58,602 nucleotides of DNA. Source: Minisyncoccota bacterium (GTDB lineage Bacteria > Patescibacteriota > Minisyncoccia > Phycocordibacterales > UBA12079). The position numbers and the translations under genes are program-made. This document shows, in pieces, positions 35,158 to 54,377 of the stretch (position 1 is its first letter; every line of letters begins with the position of its first letter). The DNA is taken from the NCBI GenBank assembly GCA_023129575.1, contig JAGMBS010000001.1, forward strand, positions 1 through 58,602. The letters are read 5' to 3'. Under the pieces are notes generated by a model. The model was given only the letters and a program-made list of their open reading frames with translations. It searched no databases and was not told the DNA's origin.

Positions 35158-35892
35158 TTAAATTCTTCCTTTGATAAATTGCAATCCGGAAATTTTGCCT
35201 AAAAATTGAGAAAATGTGGTGGAACTGTCAATTGATAATCGCGGCAACAAAAATATATTATTTTTTAAGCCGATTGCCCCCTCCCGGACGGTAAATGCCC
35301 CCTGATATCCGGCGTTTTTGACCATTGCAACGACAGAATTGTCAAAACAGCCGCTTGGATAAGCAAAAACATCGCATTTTTGTCCCAATTGTTTTTCTAT
35401 AATTTGTTTGCTTTCCGTAAGTTCCGCTCTTAATCGCTCTTTGGAAATTTGATTTAATTTTGGATGGCTTAGTGTGTGGCAGCCAAAATTTACAAATCCT
35501 GATTGTTGCATTTCTTTAATTTCATCCCAATTCAAATATCCTTCCTGCCCGATTAAATCCGTAATTAAAAATATTGTGACTGGGAAATTATATCTTTTAA
35601 GAAGAGGAAAAACAACGGAATAATTATCTTGATAGCCGTCGTCAAATGACAAAACTGCCGTTTTATGCAACATTTGTTTTTTATCTTGAATAGTTTTAAC
35701 TAAATCACCAATTTTAATTACATTAAACTTTTTCTTTTTCAAAAATCTTAATTGTTTTTCAAAATTGACGGACGCAACCGTAAAAAATCTTTTGTCATTA
35801 CTCACCGAATGATACATTAAAACACCCGCCTTGCGAGATCTTATCGCCAACGATAATAAATATTTTTTTAAGCTAATTAAATCCTTAAGCAT
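35158..35892 (-). CDS. Polysaccharide deacetylase (NodB/CE4)
   Basis: 244 aa. VLMYHSV, LSFDDGYQDNY, VTIFLITD, GCHTLSHPKL. Confidence 0.9.
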   Translation of the reverse strand: MLKDLISLKKYLLSLAIRSRKAGVLMYHSVSNDKRFFTVASVNFEKQLRFLKKKKFNVIKIGDLVKTIQDKKQMLHKTAVLSFDDGYQDNYSVVFPLLKRYNFPVTIFLITDLIGQEGYLNWDEIKEMQQSGFVNFGCHTLSHPKLNQISKERLRAELTESKQIIEKQLGQKCDVFAYPSGCFDNSVVAMVKNAGYQGAFTVREGAIGLKNNIFLLPRLSIDSSTTFSQFLGKISGLQFIKGRI

Positions 35893-37000
35893 AATATGAA
35901 TTTATTATATTTTTAATTAAATTGTTCAATCCGTGGCGTTTGATAATTTCTCGTCTTAATTCGGTTTGCGGTTTGTTCTCGTTTGAAATTTTCACTATCT
36001 TTTCCGCCAATTCTTTCGGGTCTGCGTTTTTCAAAATAAATTCGCGAGGCAAAATATTTTGAAATGTTTTATTCAATACAATAACCGGCAACTCGCAGGC
36101 CATCGCTTCTAAAACAACTTTATCCGCTCCGCCGGTCGGACATAAATTTACGCTTAATTTCGCGCCGCAATAATATCTGACAATTTCCGTGTTCGGAACA
36201 GCGCCTTCAAAAAAAATATTTTTCTCTAATTTTTTATTTTTGACTAATTTTCTCAATTCCTCCCGATAAATCCTGTCTTTATCCGACGAAGCTCCGCCGA
36301 CAAATACGGCTTTCAAATTTTCTTGATTTTTTTGATTAACTAAAATATCAACCGCTTCTATTAAAAGTTTCTGATTTTTTATCGGACTTATTCTGCCAAC
36401 GCACAAAACATCAAATTTGTTTTGCCGCCCCGCTTCACAATTATATTTATTCAAATCTATTCCGTGCCCCGTTATTTTTAATTTTTTAGTTTGGAGGCGG
36501 AAAGATTCGGGCGTGGCGGAAAAAATAATATCGGCTAATTTCTCGGCCATTCTTAATTTTAAATTTACCGCTTTGTGCAGATACCACAGGCCGATTTCCT
36601 TCCGCCAAATTTTCCAAAATAATCCGCCTAAAACAACATATTCCGGATTCATATGAACAAAGACGGTGTCATAATTTTTTCGTTCTCGCCAAATATATTT
36701 ATAAAAATTGAAAATGTATTTTTGTCTACTTTTAACTTTATGGACTTTTGACTTTTGGCTGGTACTTTCTTTACCCAAAGAAAGTACCTTCACATTCTGC
36801 GGCAAATCATAGTTCCCCTGTGAAATAGTTTTTCTTTTAGAAAAATTATCGCTTTGCGATATTTCACAGGGTAAGCCCGTTCCCAAAGCAACGACGGTCA
36901 CTTTTTCGCAATATTTGGCAAATTTAGCGATCCAGCCGTGAAAAAAGCCAAGAATATCGTCATTTTTATCCACCTTTTGAGTTAGTATTAATAATTTCAT
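35885..37000 (-). CDS. GT4-family glycosyltransferase carrying an in-frame palindrome plus heptamer-repeat insert
   Basis: 371 aa. VGRISPIKNQKLLIEA, FVGGAS, GGADKVVLEAMACELPVIV. The insert ...LGKESTSQKSKVHKVKSRQK is encoded by 36722-36788. Confidence 0.8.
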   Translation of the reverse strand: MKLLILTQKVDKNDDILGFFHGWIAKFAKYCEKVTVVALGTGLPCEISQSDNFSKRKTISQGNYDLPQNVKVLSLGKESTSQKSKVHKVKSRQKYIFNFYKYIWRERKNYDTVFVHMNPEYVVLGGLFWKIWRKEIGLWYLHKAVNLKLRMAEKLADIIFSATPESFRLQTKKLKITGHGIDLNKYNCEAGRQNKFDVLCVGRISPIKNQKLLIEAVDILVNQKNQENLKAVFVGGASSDKDRIYREELRKLVKNKKLEKNIFFEGAVPNTEIVRYYCGAKLSVNLCPTGGADKVVLEAMACELPVIVLNKTFQNILPREFILKNADPKELAEKIVKISNENKPQTELRREIIKRHGLNNLIKNIINSYYA

Positions 37001-38139
37001 TAATTTAACTTGACTTTTTTGTTTATAGTATCAAACCAGGATTTCTGCAGGGCGTTTAGGTATTCTCCTTCGGTCCGGTATGTTTTTTGAACGAGATCTG
37101 TGTAGGCCTTTTCTTTGAATTGAGACAAAAGCGCCGGATATTGCTGGGCTTTGACGAGATTTCGAACAAAACAGGCCCGGTCGCCAACATCGCACAGGAG
37201 CGAATTATTGCTACTTAATATCTCTCCCGCTATGCCGACCTTAGTAGTCAGAACCGGACAATGAGAAGCAATCGCCTCCACCAAAGAAAGCCCGTAGCCC
37301 TCATAATCCGAGCTTGAGAGAAAAAGATCGGCTGTTTTGTAATATGTGAGCGGGTCATTCGTCCATTTTTTGAAAATAATATTTTCTTCAAGCCCGGCTC
37401 GCCTGACCTGCCGTCTCAATGTCTTTCGTGACGAACCAGCGCCGATAATAATCAGACCGGTTTTGGGAAAAATTGCTGTAACTTTTTGCATCGCCGCAAT
37501 CGCCATTGAAATATTTTTTTCCTTTTCCAAACGGCTCATCATTAAAATAATAAATTTAAACCGAGGATATTGTTTGTGAAGATTTAGACCGACTCTGGTT
37601 TGTTGAATTCGCGCCAGATCCGTAAAAATCGGCAAAACAACCGTTTTTTCTTGAAGTTTTTCGGGCAAAGATTTTTTAATTCTTTTTGAAACCGCTCGGA
37701 GACAGTCCGCTTTTGGCAATAAAAAATTGGCGGCCGCGGACCTCATTCTGTTGGCAATTGAATGTTTTATAAAATAAGGATTAAAAATATCGGTATGAAT
37801 TTGGAATTCCAATTTGGTTTTAAGTTTTTTGGCGATTCGCCAAGCTATCAGCCCAATTTCGTAAGGGTCTTGAGAGGTAACCAAATCAATGTCCCGCAAT
37901 TTGGAAGCGATTTTAACAGCGTCCAACATATAAGCGAATTTACTTGACGAATTTGTGGGAAAGATCCAAATATTTTTGGCTATTTTCATTTCTTTCCCGG
38001 GGGTCGCGTTTTCTGATTTTTTGTTCAAGACAATGATATAAAGCTTATTGACCAACATGCCATAGTTAAACATCCGCTGGCGAACTGCGCTATTTTCGTC
38101 AAATATTTTTTTGTCCACGCTTATCATTAAGATATTCAT
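37000..38139 (-). CDS. GT4-family glycosyltransferase
   Basis: The ORF is open to 38166. ATG at 38139 (MNILMISVDKKIF) is the likely start. MSRLEKEKN, SDYEGYGLSLVEAIASHCPVLTTKVG. Confidence 0.8.
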   Translation of the reverse strand: MNILMISVDKKIFDENSAVRQRMFNYGMLVNKLYIIVLNKKSENATPGKEMKIAKNIWIFPTNSSSKFAYMLDAVKIASKLRDIDLVTSQDPYEIGLIAWRIAKKLKTKLEFQIHTDIFNPYFIKHSIANRMRSAAANFLLPKADCLRAVSKRIKKSLPEKLQEKTVVLPIFTDLARIQQTRVGLNLHKQYPRFKFIILMMSRLEKEKNISMAIAAMQKVTAIFPKTGLIIIGAGSSRKTLRRQVRRAGLEENIIFKKWTNDPLTYYKTADLFLSSSDYEGYGLSLVEAIASHCPVLTTKVGIAGEILSSNNSLLCDVGDRACFVRNLVKAQQYPALLSQFKEKAYTDLVQKTYRTEGEYLNALQKSWFDTINKKVKLN

Positions 38140-38280
38140 CCCGTTAGAGAGAACCCCCCTATGCAAAGAAATTCTCTAAATTTAATTAAAATTAAATAAT
38201 ACCTATTGTTTGAAAATAAATCCCTATTCTCTAACGGGATTCATCTCCCCAGTATATCAAAAACACCCCTATAATAACAT

Positions 38281-38312
38281 AGCGAACGGCTCAACGAGTT
38301 GAGCCGTTCGCT
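38281..38312. terminator. Perfect palindrome AGCGAACGGCTCAAC-ga-GTTGAGCCGTTCGCT downstream of the 38336-39439 gene; core shared with 49774-49803
   Basis: 15-bp perfect stem read directly. The identical 26-nt core GAACGGCTCAACGAGTTGAGCCGTTC occurs again at 49777-49802. Confidence 0.75.
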
Positions 38313-38335
38313 ATGTTTAGGTTGAAAAATAAGGG

Positions 38336-39439
38336 TTATTGCGATTTTTTCAGCAATTTCTCCAAATTATCCAAAGTGTTTTGGATTGAAAATTGTTTTG
38401 ATTTTTGGTAGGCGTTTTGAATAATTTTTTGCCTAAAATTATCGTTTCTGAAAATCTTCAAAACAGCATTTTTAATTTCTTCTTTATTATTCGGCTCAAT
38501 CAAAATCCCTTCTTTATTATTTTCGATCAATTCCGAATTACCGCCTATATTGGTTGTAATAATCGGAACCATAGCATTAGAAGCTTCTAAAAGAAGATGT
38601 GCGAAACCCTCGTATTTCGTATTTAATACAAACATATCCACTTCCCGCATATATTTCAAAACCTCTTTTTTTTCTAATTGCCCCGTTAAAATAACTTTGC
38701 CTTGTAAATTTAATCCGTCAATTGTCTTTTTTAATTCTTCTTTTTGAGGACCGCTTCCCACAATCACCAATTTCGCTTCCGGGATTTCTTTTAGAATATC
38801 CGGCATCGTTTCAATCAAAACTTTAAAACCTTTCCACGGCACCAACCGCCCCACTGACAAAATAATCTTCTCCTCTCTTGGAGGCCTTGTCTCTAACAAA
38901 TTTTGCGGTGTTAATTTTATGCCATTGTAAATTACATTGATTTTTTCCGGCTGAATACTCCAATTGACAATAATTGTTTTGAAATAATGACTGGGGACTA
39001 TCACAACATCCGCCGCTTTGGCAACTTTGGTCTGAATTTTTTTAAAAAGTTGAACAAAAAAAGAATACCCTTTTTGTTTGGCGGAAAAATCATCAAGATT
39101 GTCTTTGACGCCAAATCTTTGAACCCCTTGCTCCCAAGCGTAATCTCCCGCAATCCGAATAAAAAATCTCTTTCTCAAAATTTTATTAGCCAGCATTGTC
39201 GGCAGACCGACACTGACTGGATCTTGCGCGTAAATAATATCCGCTGATTTTCCCCGTTTAAGAACTTTGAAAAAATAGACGATATGCCTGATTATTTTGG
39301 GCAGATGACGGACTTCGCCAAATGACAAAATTTCCACTTCAAAACCGCGTTTCGGTAATTCGTCAAATAACAATTTTGAATAAGTCGCCGGCCCTCCAAT
39401 ATCCGGCGGATATATTCCTGTTGTAATTAAAATTTTCAT
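38336..39439 (-). CDS. GT4-family glycosyltransferase
   Basis: 367 aa. MKILITTGIYPPDIGGPATY, VGRLVPWKGF, YEGFAHLLLEASNAMVPIITTNIGGNSE. Confidence 0.9.
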   Translation of the reverse strand: MKILITTGIYPPDIGGPATYSKLLFDELPKRGFEVEILSFGEVRHLPKIIRHIVYFFKVLKRGKSADIIYAQDPVSVGLPTMLANKILRKRFFIRIAGDYAWEQGVQRFGVKDNLDDFSAKQKGYSFFVQLFKKIQTKVAKAADVVIVPSHYFKTIIVNWSIQPEKINVIYNGIKLTPQNLLETRPPREEKIILSVGRLVPWKGFKVLIETMPDILKEIPEAKLVIVGSGPQKEELKKTIDGLNLQGKVILTGQLEKKEVLKYMREVDMFVLNTKYEGFAHLLLEASNAMVPIITTNIGGNSELIENNKEGILIEPNNKEEIKNAVLKIFRNDNFRQKIIQNAYQKSKQFSIQNTLDNLEKLLKKSQ

Positions 39440-39452
39440 AATAATATTATAT

Positions 39453-39475
39453 TGACGGACGTCCGACGTCCGTCA
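39453..39475. repeat. REP-like palindrome copy 1: TGACGGACG-TCCGA-CGTCCGTCA
   Basis: 9-bp perfect arms. It overlaps the last codons (LTDVGRPSI-stop) of the RayT-like ORF. Confidence 0.9.
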
Positions 39476-39947
39476 GATATCGTTCGTTTTTTATCCATTC
39501 TTCCATCTCTTTTTTATATTCTTCTCCGCTTGTGTGAAATATCTTCAAAAAAAGTTCCCGATTTGATACGTCTGCAAACTCACTATTCCCTTTTCCTATA
39601 ATATCGCGATAATTAGACCAACGATATTCTTCAAGAAATTTTATAGCTCCCTTCGTATCTTTAATTCCTTTTTCTTTCCATTTTGGCTGAAATAAATCAA
39701 GAGGATTGAGATGAATATAAAATGGCAAATATAATAATTGCGCGTCTTTATTTACAAGAACCTTTTTTGATCGCCCTTGAAATAATACCCCGCTTCTATT
39801 ATTTCGCTCATTAAAATATTTTGTGTATCCCCCAAAAATTTTCTTAGAAAAATTACTTATACCTTCTTTTTTTCTTTCCATTACCATAATGTGGGGATGA
39901 TTCGGCATCAAAGCCCAACAAATAACATCAACAATTTTATCTTGTCC

Positions 39948-39970
39948 TGACGGACGTCCGACGTCCGTCA
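39948..39970. repeat. REP-like palindrome copy 2 (identical to copy 1), inside the RayT-like ORF
   Basis: Identical 23-mer, translated in frame as LTDVGRPS between the N-terminal strand and the HUH motif. Confidence 0.9.
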
Positions 39971-40172
39971 GAGAATATTTATCTGCTCTTCTGCGAAAAT
40001 AAGATTGTTCCGCGTTATGTATGCTGTTAAAATCGCCTAAATTGTGAACAAAACGAATACGGTCTTTGTTATCAAGACAAATTTTTCTTTTTTCCACACC
40101 CCTATTAAAAATATGATACAAATCTCCTTTCACCAATTTAATGATACCATATTTGAATATAATGCACCTGCT

Positions 40173-40195
40173 TGACGGACGTCGGACGTCCGTCA
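40173..40195. repeat. REP-like palindrome copy 3 (loop inverted: TCGGA)
   Basis: Same arms with the central pentamer reverse-complemented, so this is the opposite orientation. It lies in the 5' extension of, or upstream from, the RayT-like gene. Confidence 0.9.
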
Positions 40196-40404
40196 AGTGT
40201 GCTCTTGGCAAAAAGCAAAATCCCGCCCAATAAAATTGCTTTTTTGGTATTTAGGCAGTAGTATTAAGATACTTGTGAATAGCAATAATGAACTTTTTAT
40301 AAGAAAACAATTCGCATAAAAACGAGTTAAATCCAATAGCGATTGTAATTAATAATCCCGCCCATTTTGCGAAAGTTTTTAAACAGCAACAGATTAATAA
40401 AAAT

Positions 40405-40749
40405 ATGAAAGTTACAAATTCCAAAATCAGTTTATTTGTTCAATTTATTTTAATTGTTCTCGTCTGGAGTTCTCCTTTTTGGCTAAGTTGGAAACTGATT
40501 TTGGCAGGGATTTTTATTTATTATCTTCAATTAATTGTTTTTAAGGAAGATTTTTTCACAAAACGAAATTTTAATACTAAAGAGCGTGGAGAAATGACTT
40601 TTTATTCTTTTGTTTTGGAAAAAATTGGAATAGGTGTTGATAGAAAGAGAATGCAATTAATTTCAGATTATATTTTTCCTTGGGTAATTTTTGCTGTTAC
40701 TTATTATTGGCAAATTTTTCTTGGGAATTTAGTTTGGTTAAGTTTCTAA
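40405..40749 (+). CDS. Hypothetical small membrane protein
   Basis: 114 aa with 3-4 hydrophobic segments. The only plus-strand ORF in this stretch. No family recognised. Confidence 0.4.
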   Translation: MKVTNSKISLFVQFILIVLVWSSPFWLSWKLILAGIFIYYLQLIVFKEDFFTKRNFNTKERGEMTFYSFVLEKIGIGVDRKRMQLISDYIFPWVIFAVTYYWQIFLGNLVWLSF

Positions 40750-40973
40750 AAACTTTCGCTTTTTCCTGCTCTAAAAATAGCAATCGTTACTTCTCCAATT
40801 TTCTTCGAAAATCTCGACTTTTTGATAAATCAAAAAGGAATTTAACAAGGGATAAAGAGTTTCACCTTCACTTTATCGTTCGGTTCCACCTAAATTCTTT
40901 TCCAGCTCGAGCATGTGAGGTTCCGTTCCAGTCTCGAGGTCAGAAAAATTTTCCTTATCCCCAATGTTGTCTA

Positions 40974-42152
40974 TTATTTAATCATTTTCTCAAAAATATT
41001 CTGCATCTTTTTTGCGATTAAATTCCAATCGTATTTTTGGGCAATTAATTGGGAGGCGTTTTGGGTGAGGGTGTTTGCGAGATTTGGATTGTTTAGGAGT
41101 AATTGGATTTTTTCGGCGATTGATTTTGGATTTTGAACTTCGCAAAAAAGTCCCGTCTCGCCGTCTTTCAAAAAATCAGGGATACCGCCAACCGGCGTTC
41201 CGATTACCGGCGTTCCCGCCGCCATCGCTTCCAAAAAAACATTTCCCAAACCTTCCGAGAGTGAAGGTCTAACAAATACATCCGCCAGAGCATAATAACT
41301 TGGCAATTCGCTGTGGTCAATATGTCCAAGAAAAATTATTTTGTTTTGGAGATTTAATTCTTTCGCCAAATTTTTCAATTTTTCTTCATCCTCCCCCGCG
41401 CCGGCGATTAAAATTTTAAATGGGAAATTCAGATATTGCCCCGCTTTAATCAAATCCTCAATACCATTCTTTTTAACCAATCGTGAAACCGTCAAAATCA
41501 CCTTTTCATTTTCTTTAATCTTTAATTCTTCTCTTAATTTTTGACTTTTGACTTTTGACTTTTGACTTTTGAACTTGTTTATATCTACTCCATTAGGAAT
41601 CACTTCAATCGGACAAGTCGCTCCCATCTTTTTCGCCCAGTCCGCCAAATAAGAACTAATGCATTGAATTCGGTCGGCTCGCCTGAAGATGTTTCTGAAT
41701 TGTTTTTTTATAAAACGAGTTCTTTTTTCAATATGTTCCGGGCTGTCACCTTCTTGAAGCGTGAGCAGAAAGCGGGGGGCGGCCTTTGCCGAAGGCAAAG
41801 GCCGCTTTCTTTCCTTTGAAATAAATCTGGACGCCGCCAAAGCGCCATAACTCGCCATTATCGCCCAAGCGATATCATAATTGTTTTGCCTCTGCAATTT
41901 TCCGGCCATCCGATGGCCGTGGAATGCTAAAAGCAATTTATCTATTTTTGGATGTCCAATCCCAATTCTAAAAACCGTGATATTTCCAATTTTTTCCTGT
42001 TTAGGTAATTTCTTATCCATCCGAGCCGTTATCATATGAAATTCCATATCAGATATTCGGTCCGTAATTTCCTTAACCGCCACTTCCGCCCCGCCGACAA
42101 ACGGGAAATAAGCCGTTGAAAATATAAGAATTTTTTTAGATATTTGGGTCAT
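40974..42152 (-). CDS. GT4-family glycosyltransferase containing a (AAAAGTC)4 tandem repeat and a GC-rich palindrome
   Basis: The ORF is open to 42173. ATG at 42152 (MTQISKKILIFSTAYFPFVGGAEVAV) is the likely start. VSRLVKKNGIEDL, PSLSEGLGNVFLEAMAAGTPVIGTPVGGIPD. Confidence 0.85.
   Translation of the reverse strand: MTQISKKILIFSTAYFPFVGGAEVAVKEITDRISDMEFHMITARMDKKLPKQEKIGNITVFRIGIGHPKIDKLLLAFHGHRMAGKLQRQNNYDIAWAIMASYGALAASRFISKERKRPLPSAKAAPRFLLTLQEGDSPEHIEKRTRFIKKQFRNIFRRADRIQCISSYLADWAKKMGATCPIEVIPNGVDINKFKSQKSKVKSQKLREELKIKENEKVILTVSRLVKKNGIEDLIKAGQYLNFPFKILIAGAGEDEEKLKNLAKELNLQNKIIFLGHIDHSELPSYYALADVFVRPSLSEGLGNVFLEAMAAGTPVIGTPVGGIPDFLKDGETGLFCEVQNPKSIAEKIQLLLNNPNLANTLTQNASQLIAQKYDWNLIAKKMQNIFEKMIK
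41543..41570. repeat. Tandem heptanucleotide repeat (GACTTTT)x4 on the plus strand, (AAAAGTC)x4 in the coding sense
   Basis: Four perfect 7-nt units followed by a degenerate fifth (GAACTTG). It encodes KFKSQKSKVKSQK within the GT4 gene. Confidence 0.9.
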
Positions 42153-43689
42153 TTTTATCCAATTTAACGACAAAAACCATACCGGCTATGGCTATTATGG
42201 TAATACCCAGCAAAGAAAAAGCCCATTTATTAAAAGGAGATTTTTTAGCAGTTTGTTTAGCGATTGGATTTGACGATGTCGGACCCGCTAATGTTAAATT
42301 CGGCGTCAAAGCCGCGCCGGCAATTGCTGCCATTTGATTTGAATTTTCCGCTACAATCGGCTGTTTTTGAACCGCATTCGCATCAAATTGAGGCGGATTT
42401 TGGGTGAATGCGGTTTTTACAACAAAATTGGCGGTTTTCTTAGGAATATCCGGACTAATTTTTTTTGTTTCCGCATATTCAAAAGCCAACCTCCCGTTTG
42501 GGTAAAGTAATTGAATTTGACTATTTTCTCGCGGAAAAAGATTGCTTATTCTGGCTGAAAATTTAATCCGGCTTTTCGGCAAAAGAATGGTATTTTTCGG
42601 AATTGTCCAATAATTATTGTCCGCTCTTAAGCGCCACCAAGACAGATTAAGTTCATAAGCAGAAGGATTATGAAGTTCAATAAAATTATTGTCAAAATTG
42701 GTTCCCAGTTCCGAAATAATGATGTCGGACGGAATAACTTTTATTTTCAAACGGGTGGCAGAGGAGCATTCGCCTGAAATAACTTCCAAAACCGCCATAT
42801 AATCACTTGGATATTGGTAATTGTGCAGAACTTTTTGCCCCGCGGCTTTTGAGCCGTCGCCAAATGTCCATTGGTATTTTGCGTTTTGCAAAGGTCTGTT
42901 TTGAATACCAAAGGCCTGGGCTTCAAAAAGAAAATCCGCGCCCGCGATTGGCGTGTCAGTCGGCGGAATAATCCGGGCGGAAATTCGCGGTTCAATATAT
43001 TCCGGAACGGGTGGAGTTGGATTATCATTTTCAGTTTGCGGAGTTTCGGGAAGGCTTGGCGGGTCAATTTCTTCTAAAAATTTTTCAATGACAACAATAC
43101 CATCAATCGGCAAATTGCAAGTGGTTGCTTCACCGGGGGTTGGAGCGCAAGCGCCCCAGCTTCCGTCACTTATTTTTTGAAATGAATTGCCAATATCTTT
43201 ATTCTCCGCAAAAGGAAAATATGACGCCTGAATAACATTTTTTGAGTCAGAGTCTTTAATAATGAGAGTCTCTCCACTCTCTTTGTTGATTAGAGAACCA
43301 AATTTAGAATTAAGAATTGTACCAGAAAAATTAGGCCAATCTGTTAAAAATGTACTCTCATCTCCATCTTTAATATCCGCCACAATTAAATACTCTTTAG
43401 GTTCCAACGCAAAACTACCCTGAATTACTGAAAAAGGGTGTCCACCGTCCTTATCAACTAATTTCCACCCTGTCAGATTTTCAACTTTCTCCAAATCCGA
43501 ATTATAAATCTCAATCCATTCCCTGCCCCCATCAGCTTTTGAGCCAAGGGCATCTTCGCCTGGGTCATACATTATCTCGGTAATTTCAATTTGGGCAAAA
43601 AGAAAAAGCGGCGCGCAAAAAAGAAAGAAAAGGGCGATTGCCGCAGGCAATCGCCCTTTGTATTTATTTATTTTCCGGTCTTTTAACAT
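42136..43689 (-). CDS. Secreted/membrane-anchored lamin-tail-domain protein (LTD-PKD-LTD, C-terminal TM)
   Basis: 517 aa. Signal-like N-terminus, LTD motifs ITEIMYDP...REWIEIYN and NFIELHNPS...WWRL, PKD-like YQWTFGDGS, C-terminal hydrophobic WAFSLLGITIIAIAGMVFVV. Confidence 0.8.
   Translation of the reverse strand: MLKDRKINKYKGRLPAAIALFFLFCAPLFLFAQIEITEIMYDPGEDALGSKADGGREWIEIYNSDLEKVENLTGWKLVDKDGGHPFSVIQGSFALEPKEYLIVADIKDGDESTFLTDWPNFSGTILNSKFGSLINKESGETLIIKDSDSKNVIQASYFPFAENKDIGNSFQKISDGSWGACAPTPGEATTCNLPIDGIVVIEKFLEEIDPPSLPETPQTENDNPTPPVPEYIEPRISARIIPPTDTPIAGADFLFEAQAFGIQNRPLQNAKYQWTFGDGSKAAGQKVLHNYQYPSDYMAVLEVISGECSSATRLKIKVIPSDIIISELGTNFDNNFIELHNPSAYELNLSWWRLRADNNYWTIPKNTILLPKSRIKFSARISNLFPRENSQIQLLYPNGRLAFEYAETKKISPDIPKKTANFVVKTAFTQNPPQFDANAVQKQPIVAENSNQMAAIAGAALTPNLTLAGPTSSNPIAKQTAKKSPFNKWAFSLLGITIIAIAGMVFVVKLDKNDPNI
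43629..43659 (-). terminator. Perfect 14-bp hairpin plus U-rich tail immediately after the upstream stop codon, inside the LTD ORF
   Basis: AAAGGGCGATTGCC-gca-GGCAATCGCCCTTT. On the minus strand it is followed by TTCTTTCTTTTTT. It starts 5 nt after the stop (43664) of the ATPase gene. Confidence 0.6.
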
Positions 43690-45316
43690 AAAGCATTTTT
43701 TCTAAAACATTTTTTGGAATTTCTTTTTTCTCGCCGCCTGAATTTATCGGACGCGCCGGATGTTCCGTTCGCCAAGTATTTATTTTAGCGGTTGGAACAT
43801 TTAATACCTTTTTCATTTCATCTCCGCTGTTCCCTTGCGTATTTTGAATTGCTTTTGACAGGGCCTCCCTCAATTGGGTTCTGTCGGAACTTATTTTTTT
43901 TTCTGTTTTAATATTGCCAATAGTTTTGAAGTTTTTCTTTCCCTGCAAACTGTTCAGACGAATGCGATTATTATCTTGACGCGGTTTTTTCAGCGCGGGT
44001 TTCTCGTTTTGAACGGGCTTTTTATCAAGCGGTTGATGCCAATCCATTATTTCCTTTTCCACTTCTCTTCTGGGCCGCGTGAATTGCTTGCGCGACATTT
44101 CTATTATTTCCGGCTTATACGAAATTAACGGTTTGGCGATCGGCAGCAAGGTCCGGGCGGAAAACGGCGTTGAACTGATTCCGTCTATCATTAATTTTAA
44201 ATAAACTTGCGCAAAACCCAGATTGACAATATCGTCCATAGTAAATTGGGGCGAAAATTCTTTTTCAAAAATTTCAGCGTCATACGAACCTAAACGAAAA
44301 ATTATCATCGTCCCGATGTTGCCGAAAATGGCGGCTTTTACTTCCTCCTCCATTTGTTCCACATATTGGTGGGCGATTGTCAGATTGAGCTTGTATTTTC
44401 TCGCTTCCGACAAAATATCGGCAAAAGATTTATTGGCGAAAGATTGAAATTCGTCCACAAAAAAATAGAAATTGGGTAATTTATTCAGTTCCTCCTGAGA
44501 AGCATCGGCGCGCGACATCGCCGCCAAATAAATTTTGGTAATCAGCATACTCCCCAATAAATTGGCGCTGGCCTCTCCCACTTGTCCTTTTGACAAATTG
44601 ATTATCAAAATCTTTTTCTGGTCCATTATTTCTCTAATGTCAAAAGAAGATTTTGTTTGCCCGATAATATTTCGCACAATCGGGTTGGACACAAATTGCC
44701 CAATTTTGTTTTGGATAGCCGCGCCGGCTTCCTGCATATAACGGTCGCCGTATTTGGCAAATTCATCCGTCCAAAAGGCCTTGACGGACGGATCGCTCAC
44801 ATTATCCACAACTTTCTGGCGATAATTTTTATCGGACAACATCCGATTAACGCCCAATAAAGTCGCGTCCGGATATTCCAGAAGAGCTAACAAAATATTA
44901 TTCAAAATGTATTGCATCCGGGCCGACCAAGCATCCACCCAAATTTTCTCAAAAGCGCTCATCAAACCGCTCACGACAAGATGTCTTTTATCGGGTTCCA
45001 CATTTTCCAAAACATTGAATGAAATCGGATTTTCCAAGTCAAACGGCGCAAAATAAATAACATCTTCTATCCGCTCTTCGGGAACATAATCCAAAAGCAA
45101 ATCGGCCGTTTTGCCGTGCGGATCCATAAAAGCCATCCCGTTGCCGTTTTTAATGTCCTGCGCCGCCATATTTTCAAGCATTGTGGATTTCCCCATTCCC
45201 GTTTTTCCGATAGTATAAATATGGTTTGTCCGGTCTGACGCTTTAATGCCGAAAGGCATCCTTTTATTGCGGCGATCAACTTCGGCAAAATATGTAATTG
45301 GATTATCGCTATCCAT
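43664..45316 (-). CDS. VirD4/TraD-like (T4SS coupling-protein-type, HerA/FtsK superfamily) P-loop ATPase, soluble, with basic C-terminal tail
   Basis: 550 aa. Walker A GKTGMGKST, Walker B FYFFVDEFQSF, TIAHQY. No N-terminal TM segment. The C-terminal 130 aa are Lys/Arg/Gln-rich and low in complexity. Confidence 0.75.
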   Translation of the reverse strand: MDSDNPITYFAEVDRRNKRMPFGIKASDRTNHIYTIGKTGMGKSTMLENMAAQDIKNGNGMAFMDPHGKTADLLLDYVPEERIEDVIYFAPFDLENPISFNVLENVEPDKRHLVVSGLMSAFEKIWVDAWSARMQYILNNILLALLEYPDATLLGVNRMLSDKNYRQKVVDNVSDPSVKAFWTDEFAKYGDRYMQEAGAAIQNKIGQFVSNPIVRNIIGQTKSSFDIREIMDQKKILIINLSKGQVGEASANLLGSMLITKIYLAAMSRADASQEELNKLPNFYFFVDEFQSFANKSFADILSEARKYKLNLTIAHQYVEQMEEEVKAAIFGNIGTMIIFRLGSYDAEIFEKEFSPQFTMDDIVNLGFAQVYLKLMIDGISSTPFSARTLLPIAKPLISYKPEIIEMSRKQFTRPRREVEKEIMDWHQPLDKKPVQNEKPALKKPRQDNNRIRLNSLQGKKNFKTIGNIKTEKKISSDRTQLREALSKAIQNTQGNSGDEMKKVLNVPTAKINTWRTEHPARPINSGGEKKEIPKNVLEKMLYVKRPENK

Positions 45317-50810: not shown

Positions 50811-52247
50811 TTATATTGTTAATAAAGGAACCTCAAAATCTTTTCCGATTCTGAATAATATTTCTTCTTGCATCCGGGGCGCCATAATTTGCAGACCCAC
50901 AGGCAATTTTTTTCCATTTTTCTCCGTCCAACCCGCCGGAACAGACATTGCCGGAACCCCCACGACATTGGACGAGACCGTAAAAATATCCGCCAAATAC
51001 ATTTGCAGGGGAGCATTGGCTTTCTCCCCTATTTTGAACGCGGGCGTCGGCGCGGTGGGAGTTATTATGGCATCTACATTTTCAAAAACTTTTTTAAAAT
51101 CATCCTTAATAATTTCTCTCAAAGCCGCCGCTTTATTATAATAAGCATCGTAATACCCGGCCGACAAAATATAAGTTCCCAACATTATTCGCCGACGAAC
51201 TTCTTTTCCAAAACCGCTTCCTTTTGTCCTCTTATAATCCTCTAAAAGATTTTCACCCCCTCTAAGATAACCATATCTCATTCCATCGTAACGCGCCAAA
51301 TTAGTGGAGGCCTCCGCCGGCATTAAAATATAATAAACAGCCAAAGCGTATTTGATATTTGGCAATTCAATTTCTCTAATTTCATAACCGGCGCCTTTCA
51401 ATTTTTCAAGCGACCCTTCAAAATTAGCTAAAACATCCTCGTCAAGACCTTCTTTCAAAAAATGTCTTGGAATACCAATTGTAATTTTTTCTTTTACATT
51501 TTTTTGCGTTTTTTTATAAATTTCATCAGGAATTGTTGTGCTGTCCATTTTGTCTTCGCCTTTAATATAATCAAATAAAATTTGCGCGTCTTCTGTTGTT
51601 TTCCCAAAAGATCCAATCTGGTCTAAAGACGAACCCATTGCAATTGCTCCATATCTGGACACAACACCATAAGTTGGTTTTAATCCAACCACTCCGCAAA
51701 AACTCGCGGGCTGGCGAATTGAACCGCCCGTGTCCGTTCCCAAAGCCGCCAGCGCCATTTGCGCGGCAACCACCACGGCGGAACCGCCCGAAGAACCTCC
51801 CGGCACCCGCGTTAAATCATACGGATTTTTTGTTACGCCAAAAGCCGAGTTTTCAGTGGAACTGCCCATCGCGAATTCATCCATATTCGTTCCGCCCGTA
51901 AAAACCGCTCCCGCCTCTTTTAACTTTTTAATAACCGTCGCGTCATAAACGGCGCGATAATTTTCCAAAATTTTGGAGCCGGCCGTCGTTCGTTTGCCCT
52001 TGATTAAGATATTATTTTTAATCGCAATTGGAATACCCGTTAATAAAGTTGCCGTCCCATCTTTTATTTTTTTGTCCGCAATATCCGCCTGTTCCAAAAC
52101 ATCGTCAAAAATTTCAATATAGGCGTTCAAATCCGGATTGATATTGTCTAAATAAGCTCGCGCTAAATCGCGTGCCGAAAAATCACCGCTTACCAAATAC
52201 TGATGCGCTTTTTTTATAGTTAATGTCTGCAAATTGATTTTAGTCAT
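50811..52247 (-). CDS. gatA: Asp-tRNA(Asn)/Glu-tRNA(Gln) amidotransferase subunit A
   Basis: 478 aa. Amidase signature GGSSGGSAVVVAA and GTDTGGSIRQPASFCG. Typical GatA length. Confidence 0.95.
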   Translation of the reverse strand: MTKINLQTLTIKKAHQYLVSGDFSARDLARAYLDNINPDLNAYIEIFDDVLEQADIADKKIKDGTATLLTGIPIAIKNNILIKGKRTTAGSKILENYRAVYDATVIKKLKEAGAVFTGGTNMDEFAMGSSTENSAFGVTKNPYDLTRVPGGSSGGSAVVVAAQMALAALGTDTGGSIRQPASFCGVVGLKPTYGVVSRYGAIAMGSSLDQIGSFGKTTEDAQILFDYIKGEDKMDSTTIPDEIYKKTQKNVKEKITIGIPRHFLKEGLDEDVLANFEGSLEKLKGAGYEIREIELPNIKYALAVYYILMPAEASTNLARYDGMRYGYLRGGENLLEDYKRTKGSGFGKEVRRRIMLGTYILSAGYYDAYYNKAAALREIIKDDFKKVFENVDAIITPTAPTPAFKIGEKANAPLQMYLADIFTVSSNVVGVPAMSVPAGWTEKNGKKLPVGLQIMAPRMQEEILFRIGKDFEVPLLTI

Positions 52248-52260
52248 TTTTTAGTATTGT

Positions 52261-52395
52261 TTTGAATAATTTTGAATTTAAAATTTTGAATTTTGATTGA
52301 ATAAATAATGTTTTAATGACTGAATGTTTAAACATTCAAAATTCGGTTATTCAAAATTGAATTGAAATTCAAAATTCATAATTCGAAATTGTTTT
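52261..52395. repeat. AT-rich symmetric motif array (TTTTGAAT ... ATTCAAAA) around an 18-bp perfect palindrome, in the gatA/rpmB divergent region
   Basis: TGAATGTTTAAACATTCA at 52321-52338. There are 3-4 TTTTGAAT-type motifs to the left and 3-4 ATTCAAAA-type motifs to the right. Confidence 0.6.
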
Positions 52396-52736: not shown

Positions 52737-54377
52737 TTAGCGCGGTTCGGGTAAGGTTCTGTTTGAAATTTCATTGAGATAAATTGTCATCTTTTCATAA
52801 TCTTTTTTATGCCGGTATAAATTTGCCAAACCGGAAAGAGCGTCTAAATTAGCGCGATTTATGCCCAAAGTTTTTTTCCATAATTGTTCCGCTTCGTCAA
52901 TTTGGCCTTTTTTGTAATACAATAAGCCCAAATTATAATAAACATTGCCATAAAAAGGATTTATTTCTATCTCTTTCAGATATTCTTTTTCGGCCTGCTC
53001 ATATTTATTTTGATAGCTGTAAATCAAACCTAAATTATTATGAGCCATTTCTTCAGCGGGATTTAATTTTAACGCTTCTTTAAATTCTTCTTCAGCCAAA
53101 TTCATATTTCCGTCTAAATAATGCATCGCTCCAAGATTGCGGCGCGCCAACGGATAATGGGGCGAATTTTGCGCCGCGTTTTGCCAAAAACTTAACCTAT
53201 CGCTGAAATTAACGCTGTGCGTAAAAGTCAAAAAGCAAAAAATTCCAAGCGCCACCAATATAAAACCGTAATAAATACTACTCAAACGCCAATTTTTAAT
53301 TGGATTTAATTCAATAAGAATAATAAAAAAACCGATTATGGGTAAATACAAACGATGCTCAATAAAATCAGATGACATCATATCCAAATTCGGACAAATG
53401 AAAGAGGGTAACAAAAATAATAAAAACCAAAATAGCCCGAATAAAATATATCGCCATCGTTTATTTTTTTTAAATAAAAATAGAAGTATTAAAAAAATAA
53501 ATGCGCTGATACCGTATATGAAAGAAGTATCTTGGATGGTCGGCAAAACAGACAAATTGAAAGGAAAAATTATTTTCCCGACAAGTTGAACAATCGCAAG
53601 AAGATTAAACAAAACGGATTTTATCATCTCCCCAATATTTGCAAACACGGAACCGCCAAGCGCCAATTGTCTAAGAATAAACCACAAACTCAAAACTAAA
53701 GTCCAACCGATAAAAATCTGTTTCTTTTTATTATTATTTGTGTCTGAATTAAAAAAATACCCGTAAAAAATGAACAGGGGCAAAACAAATAAAGCCGTTT
53801 CTTTGGTAAAAATCGCCATCGCAAAAAACAATAAATGAGCAACAAAATATTTTATCCGAGATCGTCTTAAAAAATTTATGAGACATATAAAAGCGGACAG
53901 AATAAAAACCGTTAGCAAAGAATCATTCCGACCCGGAACCCAAGCGACCGCTTGCGTTAGAACCGGATGCGACAAAAAAACCAAAGACCACAAAAAAGAA
54001 ACATCCCGTTTATATTTTAATTTTTTCAAAAAAACAAACACCAGGCAAGCGGATAAAAGATGCAAAATAATATTGGTAAAATGATATATCAAAGGATTTA
54101 TTCCGCCCATTTGATAATCAAATATAAACGAAATAGTCAGCACAGGCCTGTAATAAGAGGCGGACTGGTCAAGAGCGTGGAAAACATCCGTGCCAAATGA
54201 TTGAAAAACATTAGATAATTTATTCAGAAAAAATTCACTATTTAAAATTAAGGTATTATCATCTAAATAAGTCCAGTCAAAAAATAAAGTTTGGGAATAA
54301 AGCAACAGTCCCAAAATAGCTATAATCGCAAAGGGCTGCCACGATTTGGAAAAAATTTTATTTATGTAAATTTGCAT
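52737..54377 (-). CDS. GT-C fold membrane glycosyltransferase with C-terminal TPR repeats (TMTC/PMT-like)
   Basis: 546 aa. About 10 TM segments with the [14 protein letters not shown] loop motif, then 4-5 TPR repeats ([27 protein letters not shown]...). Confidence 0.75.

Follow-up and report, generated by a model that had tools for sequence, protein, structure and literature searches.

The window analysed here is the whole 58,602-nt stretch of contig JAGMBS010000001.1 from a Minisyncoccota bacterium (Patescibacteriota), and the element in question is a heptanucleotide tandem array inside a gene for a family GT4 glycosyltransferase, which stands at the end of a surface-glycan gene cluster on the reverse strand (Table 1). 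The array was the top-scoring short-period array of the 58.6-kb window in the Tandem Repeats Finder (TRF) analysis. On the coding strand, four perfect AAAAGTC units (positions 41543-41570) are preceded by caagttc and followed by aaaaatt, with partial units beside the perfect ones. They encode residues 195-205 of the 392-residue enzyme (KSQKSKVKSQK). The initial annotation had described this array as a candidate phase-variation switch. Both TRF and the sequence itself confirmed that a real array of four units lies inside the open reading frame (ORF), and the peptide KFKSQKSKVKSQK given for it agrees with the translation.

Table 1. Coordinates of the array, its gene and related features in the window
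Feature	Position	Strand	Basis and remarks
GT4 (GT-B, BshA/MshA-like) glycosyltransferase gene, 392 aa	40974-42152	-	Pfam, homologues, PDB profile, AlphaFold2 model
Perfect heptanucleotide array	41539-41572	-	TRF: period 7, 4.9 copies, 100% matches, score 68
(ATTAAAG)x2.1 tract	41512-41526	-	TRF, lag scan; same linker, 12 nt downstream of the main array, encodes ELKIKE
Surface-glycan gene cluster	35158-42152	-	ORFs, Pfam, NCBIfam
Second GT4 gene, 371 aa	35885-37000	-	Pfam, homologues; carries the decayed array
Decayed AAAAGTC array	36728-36757	-	TRF: period 7, 4.0 copies, 80%

The ORF that bears the array would reach position 42173 if a TTG start is used. Its product matched the Pfam families Glyco_transf_4 (PF13439, residues 26-199, 51.5 bits against a cut-off of 28.5) and Glycos_transf_1 (PF00534, residues 211-374, 165.1 bits against a cut-off of 26.4), and it shares 58-67% identity with hundreds of homologues in Patescibacteria. 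Among solved structures, the best profile relatives were BshA proteins, namely 2jjm (E 3e-40), 3mbo and 5d00, with E values of about 1e-40. The score for the BshA equivalog TIGR03999 of NCBIfam was 140.8 bits and stayed under the cut-off of 273.7, and all other NCBIfam equivalog scores were under their cut-offs as well. BshA is thus only the nearest solved relative. The AlphaFold2 model had a predicted local distance difference test (pLDDT) score of 91.7 and showed alternating strand and helix elements in both halves. The E-x7-E motif defines GT4, and its two glutamates in the C-terminal domain, E300 and E308, were invariant in 35 homologues. The Pfam domains, the model and this motif indicate that the gene encodes a GT4 retaining glycosyltransferase of the GT-B fold.

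In the AlphaFold2 model, residues 195-197 form a loop and residues 198-209 a helix ahead of the first strand of the C-terminal domain. The array block had a pLDDT of 79, the lowest in the central part of the model, and only the first two N-terminal blocks were equally low. Because the model puts residues 195-209 between the domains, before the first strand of the C-terminal one, we assign the array to the connector that joins the two domains of the GT-B enzyme. The placement just before the C-terminal Rossmann domain, as first proposed, therefore agrees with both the model and the position of the array between the two Pfam domains.

The non-random character of the array was also seen in the composition of the window. 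The 14-mer AAAAGTCAAAAGTC occurred four times against 0.13 expected, and a count of four was reached in 0 of 100 shuffles; the fourth match lies at 36743-36756 on the reverse strand, in the second GT4 gene. The lone heptamer AAAAGTC was not enriched in the window (21 against 16.6). Perfect period-7 tracts were over-represented, with 11 in the window against 2.4 in dinucleotide shuffles, although three of these tracts belong to a 24-nt palindrome and are no true repeats. These three, GACGTCC x2.1 at 39458, 39953 and 40176, had been candidates for simple sequence repeats (SSRs) and were rejected as halves of the palindrome.

As the unit of 7 nt is no multiple of three, gain or loss of one unit was expected from the start to shift the reading frame. 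We replaced the four units in silico with 0-8 units and translated the results. A full-length GT4 was obtained only with 1, 4 or 7 units, so that one unit more or less (5 or 3) frameshifts the gene as anticipated. With all other unit numbers, translation stopped 1-8 codons past the array and the N-terminal domain alone remained. The stop came one codon past the array with 3 or 6 units and eight codons past it with 2 or 8 units, and with 2, 3, 5, 6 or 8 units the protein ended at residues 203-221. The tract has in this way the make-up of a contingency locus, in that a non-triplet unit lies inside an ORF and its gain or loss destroys the product.

Strong evidence came from orthologues across Patescibacteria, for which we used 80 species-representative GTDB loci and 49 JGI metagenome loci (about 33 orthologues). 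The linker was taken as the stretch between the conserved PNGV and (T/V)SRL motifs. In the linkers of 79 GTDB loci, which amount to 9.2 kb, there were 20 perfect period-7 tracts in 17 loci and species, against about two expected at the background rate. The density was 2.18 per kb in the linker and 0.224 per kb in the remainder of these loci (316 kb), while tracts of periods 3, 6, 9 and 12 in the linker numbered 1, 1, 0 and 0. The pooled autocorrelation over the 63 nt after PNGV was 0.372, 0.358 and 0.339 at lags 7, 14 and 21 with a baseline near 0.29, and no lag-7 peak was found in controls from the N- and C-terminal domains (0.265 and 0.267).

The units themselves vary by lineage, for example AATTTTC x4.3, AAATATC x4.4, TTCACAG x3.0, AAAGTTT x2.9, ATTTCAG x4.4, CAATTTT x4.9, GTCAAAA and TCGGATG, the last with up to about 22 units. 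Such lineage-specific units amount to concerted evolution, and ongoing slippage is therefore required. Family motifs such as NFQFSIF and KFQISNF are three-phase translations of heptamers. The window protein aligns to its homologues without a gap in the linker, and its closest homologue, at 67% identity, has the unrelated linker peptide QHFSQIYPEDELNE. Comparison with orthologues had been set as a test of whether this segment is a conserved linker encoded by non-repetitive DNA; the outcome was the opposite, with different heptamer arrays in orthologues at the same site.

Near-identical loci that differ by whole units were found in two cases. Locus L097 (JGI Ga0210057_1001250) and locus L003 (ENA k141_955832) showed no mismatch in 2694 nt and one gap of 14 nt, which corresponds to two AAATATC units. 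The GT4 gene of L097 is intact, whereas that of L003 is broken into two ORFs, one for the N-domain (240 aa) and one for the C-domain, and its frame is restored by one unit fewer or two more. In the pair L094 and L116 the flanks are 100% and 99.63% identical, and the difference of 77 nt equals 11 TCGGATK units; the gene is in frame in L094 and frameshifted in L116. The arrays of L116, L003 and L097 are well under read length. Relatives of the window gene thus carry the orthologous tract in a polymorphic state, with both ON and OFF alleles. Since the two OFF alleles have no other lesion, frameshifted intermediates do reach consensus frequency in nature. Moreover, other comparisons (for example L086 with L094, and L085 with L089) had flanks at least 98.8% identical yet wholly different linkers. 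Because near-identical contigs differ there, the linker site is hypervariable when set against the remainder of the gene.

For the organism of the window itself, the same protein was found on DAOWKT010000001.1 (metagenome-assembled genome, MAG, GCA_030639765.1) and on two further contigs. The sequencing runs that contain window DNA are cold-seep and hydrothermal-vent metagenomes, and in one of them (X1) a long contig held 0.99 of the sampled window words. The array flanks recruited short Logan unitigs only, none of which spans the array. In two runs of the same cold-seep study (X2 and X4), contigs had 2/129 and 3/62 mismatches to the window in the stretch upstream of the array. At the array site these contigs enter other, imperfect heptamers (AAATTCC AAATCAC AAATTCC AAATTAC), which are in frame as KKFQITNSKL. 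Near-identical contigs thus enter different heptamers, and therefore a close strain has another array at the same place. A scan of JGI metagenomes with the window protein gave no relative above 63% identity, and therefore no strain-level comparison for the species was to be had there. A 150-aa query around the linker, aimed at truncated near-identical fragments, returned only proteins of 188-259 aa, none of them close to the window; it led to P0128, the split homologue at L003.

Heptamers were not confined to the linker. Perfect tandem tracts of 11 or more matched positions were counted over 327 kb of GTDB loci; period 7 gave 29 and period 14 gave 10, and the remaining periods between 2 and 15 summed to nine. 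Neighbouring GT4 or GtrA-GT4 genes also carry heptamer arrays, in an N-domain loop, and others lie in intergenic DNA upstream. The AAAAGTC site that had been pointed out in the second GT4 gene of the window belongs to the N-domain loop class. It has two perfect units at 36743-36756, together with degenerate copies, and encodes SQKSKVHKVKSRQK. The alignment of 50 homologues showed that this part of the enzyme is a hypervariable loop and an insertion hot spot, where homologues have no insert, or the conserved peptide SQKSKVYKV(K/E)SK, or other heptamer-encoded peptides such as NFQFSIFNFQ and LRIKNYDLRIKNF. With its two perfect units the site is decayed, and active slippage there is unlikely.

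The GT4 family of the array-bearing gene has a second heptamer hot spot, which falls in the loop ITNYELP or QITNYKLP, 65-128 nt past the SRL motif. Its units include GAATTAC x4.0, AAACTAC x4.9, AGTTACC x3.9 and ACAAATT x3.3, and arrays were found in L006, L114, L029, L030, L033, L034, L086-L094 and L098-L100. The window gene has no insert at this position. In intergenic DNA, CGCATAA was present upstream in 8.3 copies in L058 (about 351), 6.4 copies in L094 (about 420) and 3.4 copies in L092 (about 477), and it is possible that this array is a promoter-spacing repeat upstream of the gene cluster. Two imperfect arrays of the window, AATTTTG x4.1 (81%) at 52268-52296 and AAATTCA x3.7 (84%) at 52365-52390, are also in AT-rich intergenic DNA, between the reverse-strand ORFs 50811-52247 and 52737-54377 and upstream of the former.

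Several orthologues also carry GC-rich, hairpin-forming, in-frame insertions of 9-60 aa that interrupt the heptamer array. These were seen in L088, L089, L091 and L045 and in the proteins P0020, P0036, P0044, P0065, P0098 and P0100, with insert peptides such as PASPSEAGRA, SPPWRDPAHTDYNKVAG, PSSRAQVEG and VIPAKAGIQ. The recurrence of one insert in different linkers points to small elements resembling repetitive extragenic palindromic (REP) sequences or miniature inverted-repeat transposable elements (MITEs) that target heptamer arrays or are tolerated in them. Longer spans of about 570-600 nt in nine GTDB orthologues had the appearance of insertions and were rejected as such. They are adjacent N-terminal fragments of a GT4 paralogue that precede the full orthologue, covering residues from about 6-110 to 6-176 at 30-44% identity (L012, L023, L068 and L082, with such spans also in L045, L059, L072, L077 and L080). 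These fragments are possibly remnants of truncated copies, and no Rfam match was found on the nine orthologous loci with the long spans. The locus L084 (P0134) was found uninformative; its gene ends in the linker, with stops in all frames, but the contig itself breaks off 20 nt later.

The array-bearing gene closes a cluster that also contains a polysaccharide deacetylase, four further GT4 genes and one ORF resembling a REP-associated tyrosine transposase (RAYT). Directly upstream, at 42136-45316 on the reverse strand, Pfam identified a 517-aa protein with Lamin-tail (LTD) and PKD domains and a 550-aa coupling ATPase of the TrwB/TraG-like type; the former is probably a surface protein. The RAYT-like ORF (39447-40211, reverse strand, 224-254 aa) had no Pfam match and a weak match to the RAYT model NF047646 at 27.5 bits, below the cut-off. 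Three copies of the 24-nt GC-rich palindrome TGACGGACGTC[C/G]GACGTCCGTCA, at 39452-39475, 39947-39970 and 40172-40195, flank and interrupt this ORF. The ORF and the palindromes look like a RAYT with its REP-like elements amid the glycosyltransferase cluster.

Taken together, the data suggest that the window tract is probably a slippage-prone frameshift site of the contingency-locus type and one member of a phylum-wide class of heptamers. Under the proposed mechanism, the heptanucleotide SSR in the GT4 connector would be a hot spot of slipped-strand mispairing. With four units the GT4 would be in frame and ON. If one or two units were gained or lost, the frame would shift and translation would stop just past the N-terminal domain, which would turn the gene OFF, and a later slip would restore the frame. 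The same process would act on the GT4 linker and on a few loops of neighbouring GT4 genes, with units that differ by lineage and unit numbers that differ between otherwise identical strains. At the sequence level, the orthologue arrays and the ON/OFF pairs support phase variation as the likely mechanism. Perfect, lineage-specific arrays at a fixed site and of fixed length are what is expected of repeated gain and loss of units through OFF intermediates. The description as a candidate phase-variation switch is thus justified by the comparative evidence, whereas an active switch in this organism is what we infer from it. The 4.9-copy tract may still slip at a useful rate, its switching may be reversible, and such switching could be adaptive, for example by varying the surface glycan that is seen by phages or by the host cell.

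Several observations weigh against this interpretation. The window tract is short, with 4.9 copies compared with 5-34 in known heptamer switches, and slippage rates drop steeply as a tract shortens. All three assemblies of this organism have four units. OFF alleles are rare at the consensus level, because 0 of the 80 GTDB representatives and only one of the about 33 JGI orthologues were frameshifted in the linker. The linker is 111 nt long in most orthologues, array-bearing ones included. The conservation of the gene, about 60% identity across classes, is unusual and points to a core function, as would not be typical of a decoration gene subject to phase variation. The array is also mid-gene, and SSRs adapted for switching by frameshift are reported to sit mostly close to the N-terminus (PMC3315296). 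In addition, the L094 array of about 154 nt may exceed read length, so that its exact count is possibly an assembly estimate.

The rarity of OFF alleles and the high conservation of the gene also speak for the main rival explanation, a neutral heptamer-slippage bias. It holds that replication prefers 7-nt slips, that arrays persist where the peptide is tolerated, and that OFF alleles are deleterious mutations or young pseudogenes, with no selected reversible switching. As far as the citation of Mrazek 2007 in PMC4692102 goes, heptameric SSRs are over-represented in many bacterial genomes and a link to the DNA polymerase footprint has been proposed. The permissive nature of the linker, which accepts GC-rich palindromic insertions of 9-60 aa in homologues, and the presence of arrays in intergenic DNA, such as CGCATAA x3.4-8.3, fit this explanation too. 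However, a merely tolerant loop should gather repeats of 3n nucleotides, and in the linker periods 3, 6, 9 and 12 are nearly missing, with period 7 about 10-fold enriched. Building or homogenising a 7-nt array at constant linker length needs frameshifted intermediates, so that lineages must repeatedly have survived the OFF state. The two OFF alleles are otherwise free of lesions and have flanks 99.6-100% identical to those of ON alleles. We therefore regard purely neutral slippage as less likely than the switch, though it is the alternative to be taken most seriously.

Selection on the protein is much harder to reconcile with these data. A flexible linker rich in lysine and serine could have been selected as such, with the DNA periodicity incidental; lysine-rich peptides such as KFKNQKSKIK and KFKIKNEKFKINELK do occur in many homologues, and the linker has the standard length of the family. 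But the 7-nt unit is read in three phases, a different one at each unit, so that the period does not come from peptide selection and such selection cannot give a DNA match that is perfect over 34 nt; a heptad repeat at the protein level was ruled out on the same ground, as the period shifts the reading phase at every unit. The closest homologue has an unrelated linker peptide, and orthologues encode quite different peptides from different heptamers. This explanation is already contradicted by the data and has very little to commend it. Action at the level of RNA or translation, in which programmed ribosomal frameshifting or transcriptional slippage gives both a full-length and an N-domain-only product, draws on the facts that all three frames are open within the array and that a shift yields a defined short product. 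It appears highly improbable, given that neither a slippery X XXY YYZ motif nor a long homopolymer nor a requirement for downstream structure was seen, that strain-to-strain variation sits in the DNA, and that an Rfam search covering nine orthologous loci, without the window, had no match. Repeats are prone to mis-assembly and Logan unitigs break around the array site, and yet an assembly or sequencing artefact is hardly credible for an array of 34 nt, far below read length, for an identical protein on three contigs of different assemblies, and for analogous arrays in dozens of independent MAGs and metagenomes.

Slippage in glycosyltransferase genes has well-studied precedents. In Neisseria, the pilin-glycosylation glycosyltransferase gene pglE is phase-variable via a genic CAAACAC repeat of 5-34 copies (PMC5953494), and by analogy this appears to be the closest precedent for a contingency-type tract in the window. 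In both, a heptamer lies inside a glycosyltransferase ORF and a change of unit number shifts the frame, in silico for the window and for a surface glycan in the case of pglE. In contrast, the copy number of the window tract is at the bottom of the pglE range, and the window array is in the GT-B connector, at a position conserved phylum-wide with lineage-specific units. The organism here is an environmental, uncultured Patescibacterium and no host-adapted pathogen, and switching in it is predicted from sequence comparison.

The lipooligosaccharide (LOS) transferases of Haemophilus influenzae, with tetranucleotide repeats, and the capsule and LOS transferases of Campylobacter jejuni, with poly-G tracts (PMC2651432, PMC8437040, PMC6321876), likewise have non-triplet SSRs inside surface-glycan transferase genes, slipped-strand mispairing, and several such genes per glycan cluster. 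Their units are 4 or 1 nt and their tracts longer than that of the window, and OFF alleles, which are common among isolates of these species, are rare at the consensus level in the orthologues from Patescibacteria. The tracts in H. influenzae and C. jejuni are usually near the 5' end of the gene. The H. influenzae genes hmw1A and hmw2A resemble the window in having a heptameric SSR whose varying unit number alters expression (PMC8262952, PMC12721329). Unlike the window array, their repeats are placed upstream of the gene, where they set the level of transcription in a graded way without a protein frameshift. Period 7 dominates the long SSRs of the Patescibacteria loci as in the heptameric cases of Xanthomonas and Nostoc; those heptamers are G-rich and intergenic, whereas the arrays here are A/T-rich and inside ORFs, concentrated at defined GT4 loops. 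In the candidate phyla radiation (CPR), a Gracilibacterium has a hypervariable gene with 9-mer (PTD) repeats, the variation being local within an otherwise clonal population (PMC6851277). It is similarly a repeat-based hypervariable locus of a CPR bacterium, but its 9-nt unit preserves the reading frame and the peptide is conserved, with no frameshifting between ON and OFF. This in-frame repeat was all that our literature search on the CPR located, and no SSR phase variation was found there.

SSR phase variation is textbook knowledge for a handful of host-adapted pathogens and essentially undescribed for the CPR. The mechanism is known; what is new is the phylum, the conservation at a structural site and the heptamer-only SSR landscape. 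Across the divergence of a whole phylum, a non-triplet period has been kept at one structural site although the unit sequence turned over, and this is an unusually clear mark of slippage itself being selected or strongly favoured by a mechanistic bias. More tentatively, Patescibacteria may keep a phylum-wide, position-conserved heptamer contingency "phasome" in the GT4 linker and surface loops that stochastically varies the surface glycan of the episymbiont, for instance for phage escape or modulated attachment to host cells, with the window tract as a live member. If this holds true, it would explain why glycosyltransferase genes are fragmented or pseudogene-like in MAGs, and unit counts would be simple population markers readable in metagenomes. 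It would also give a concrete, testable mechanism for the surface heterogeneity of these ultra-small episymbiotic bacteria.

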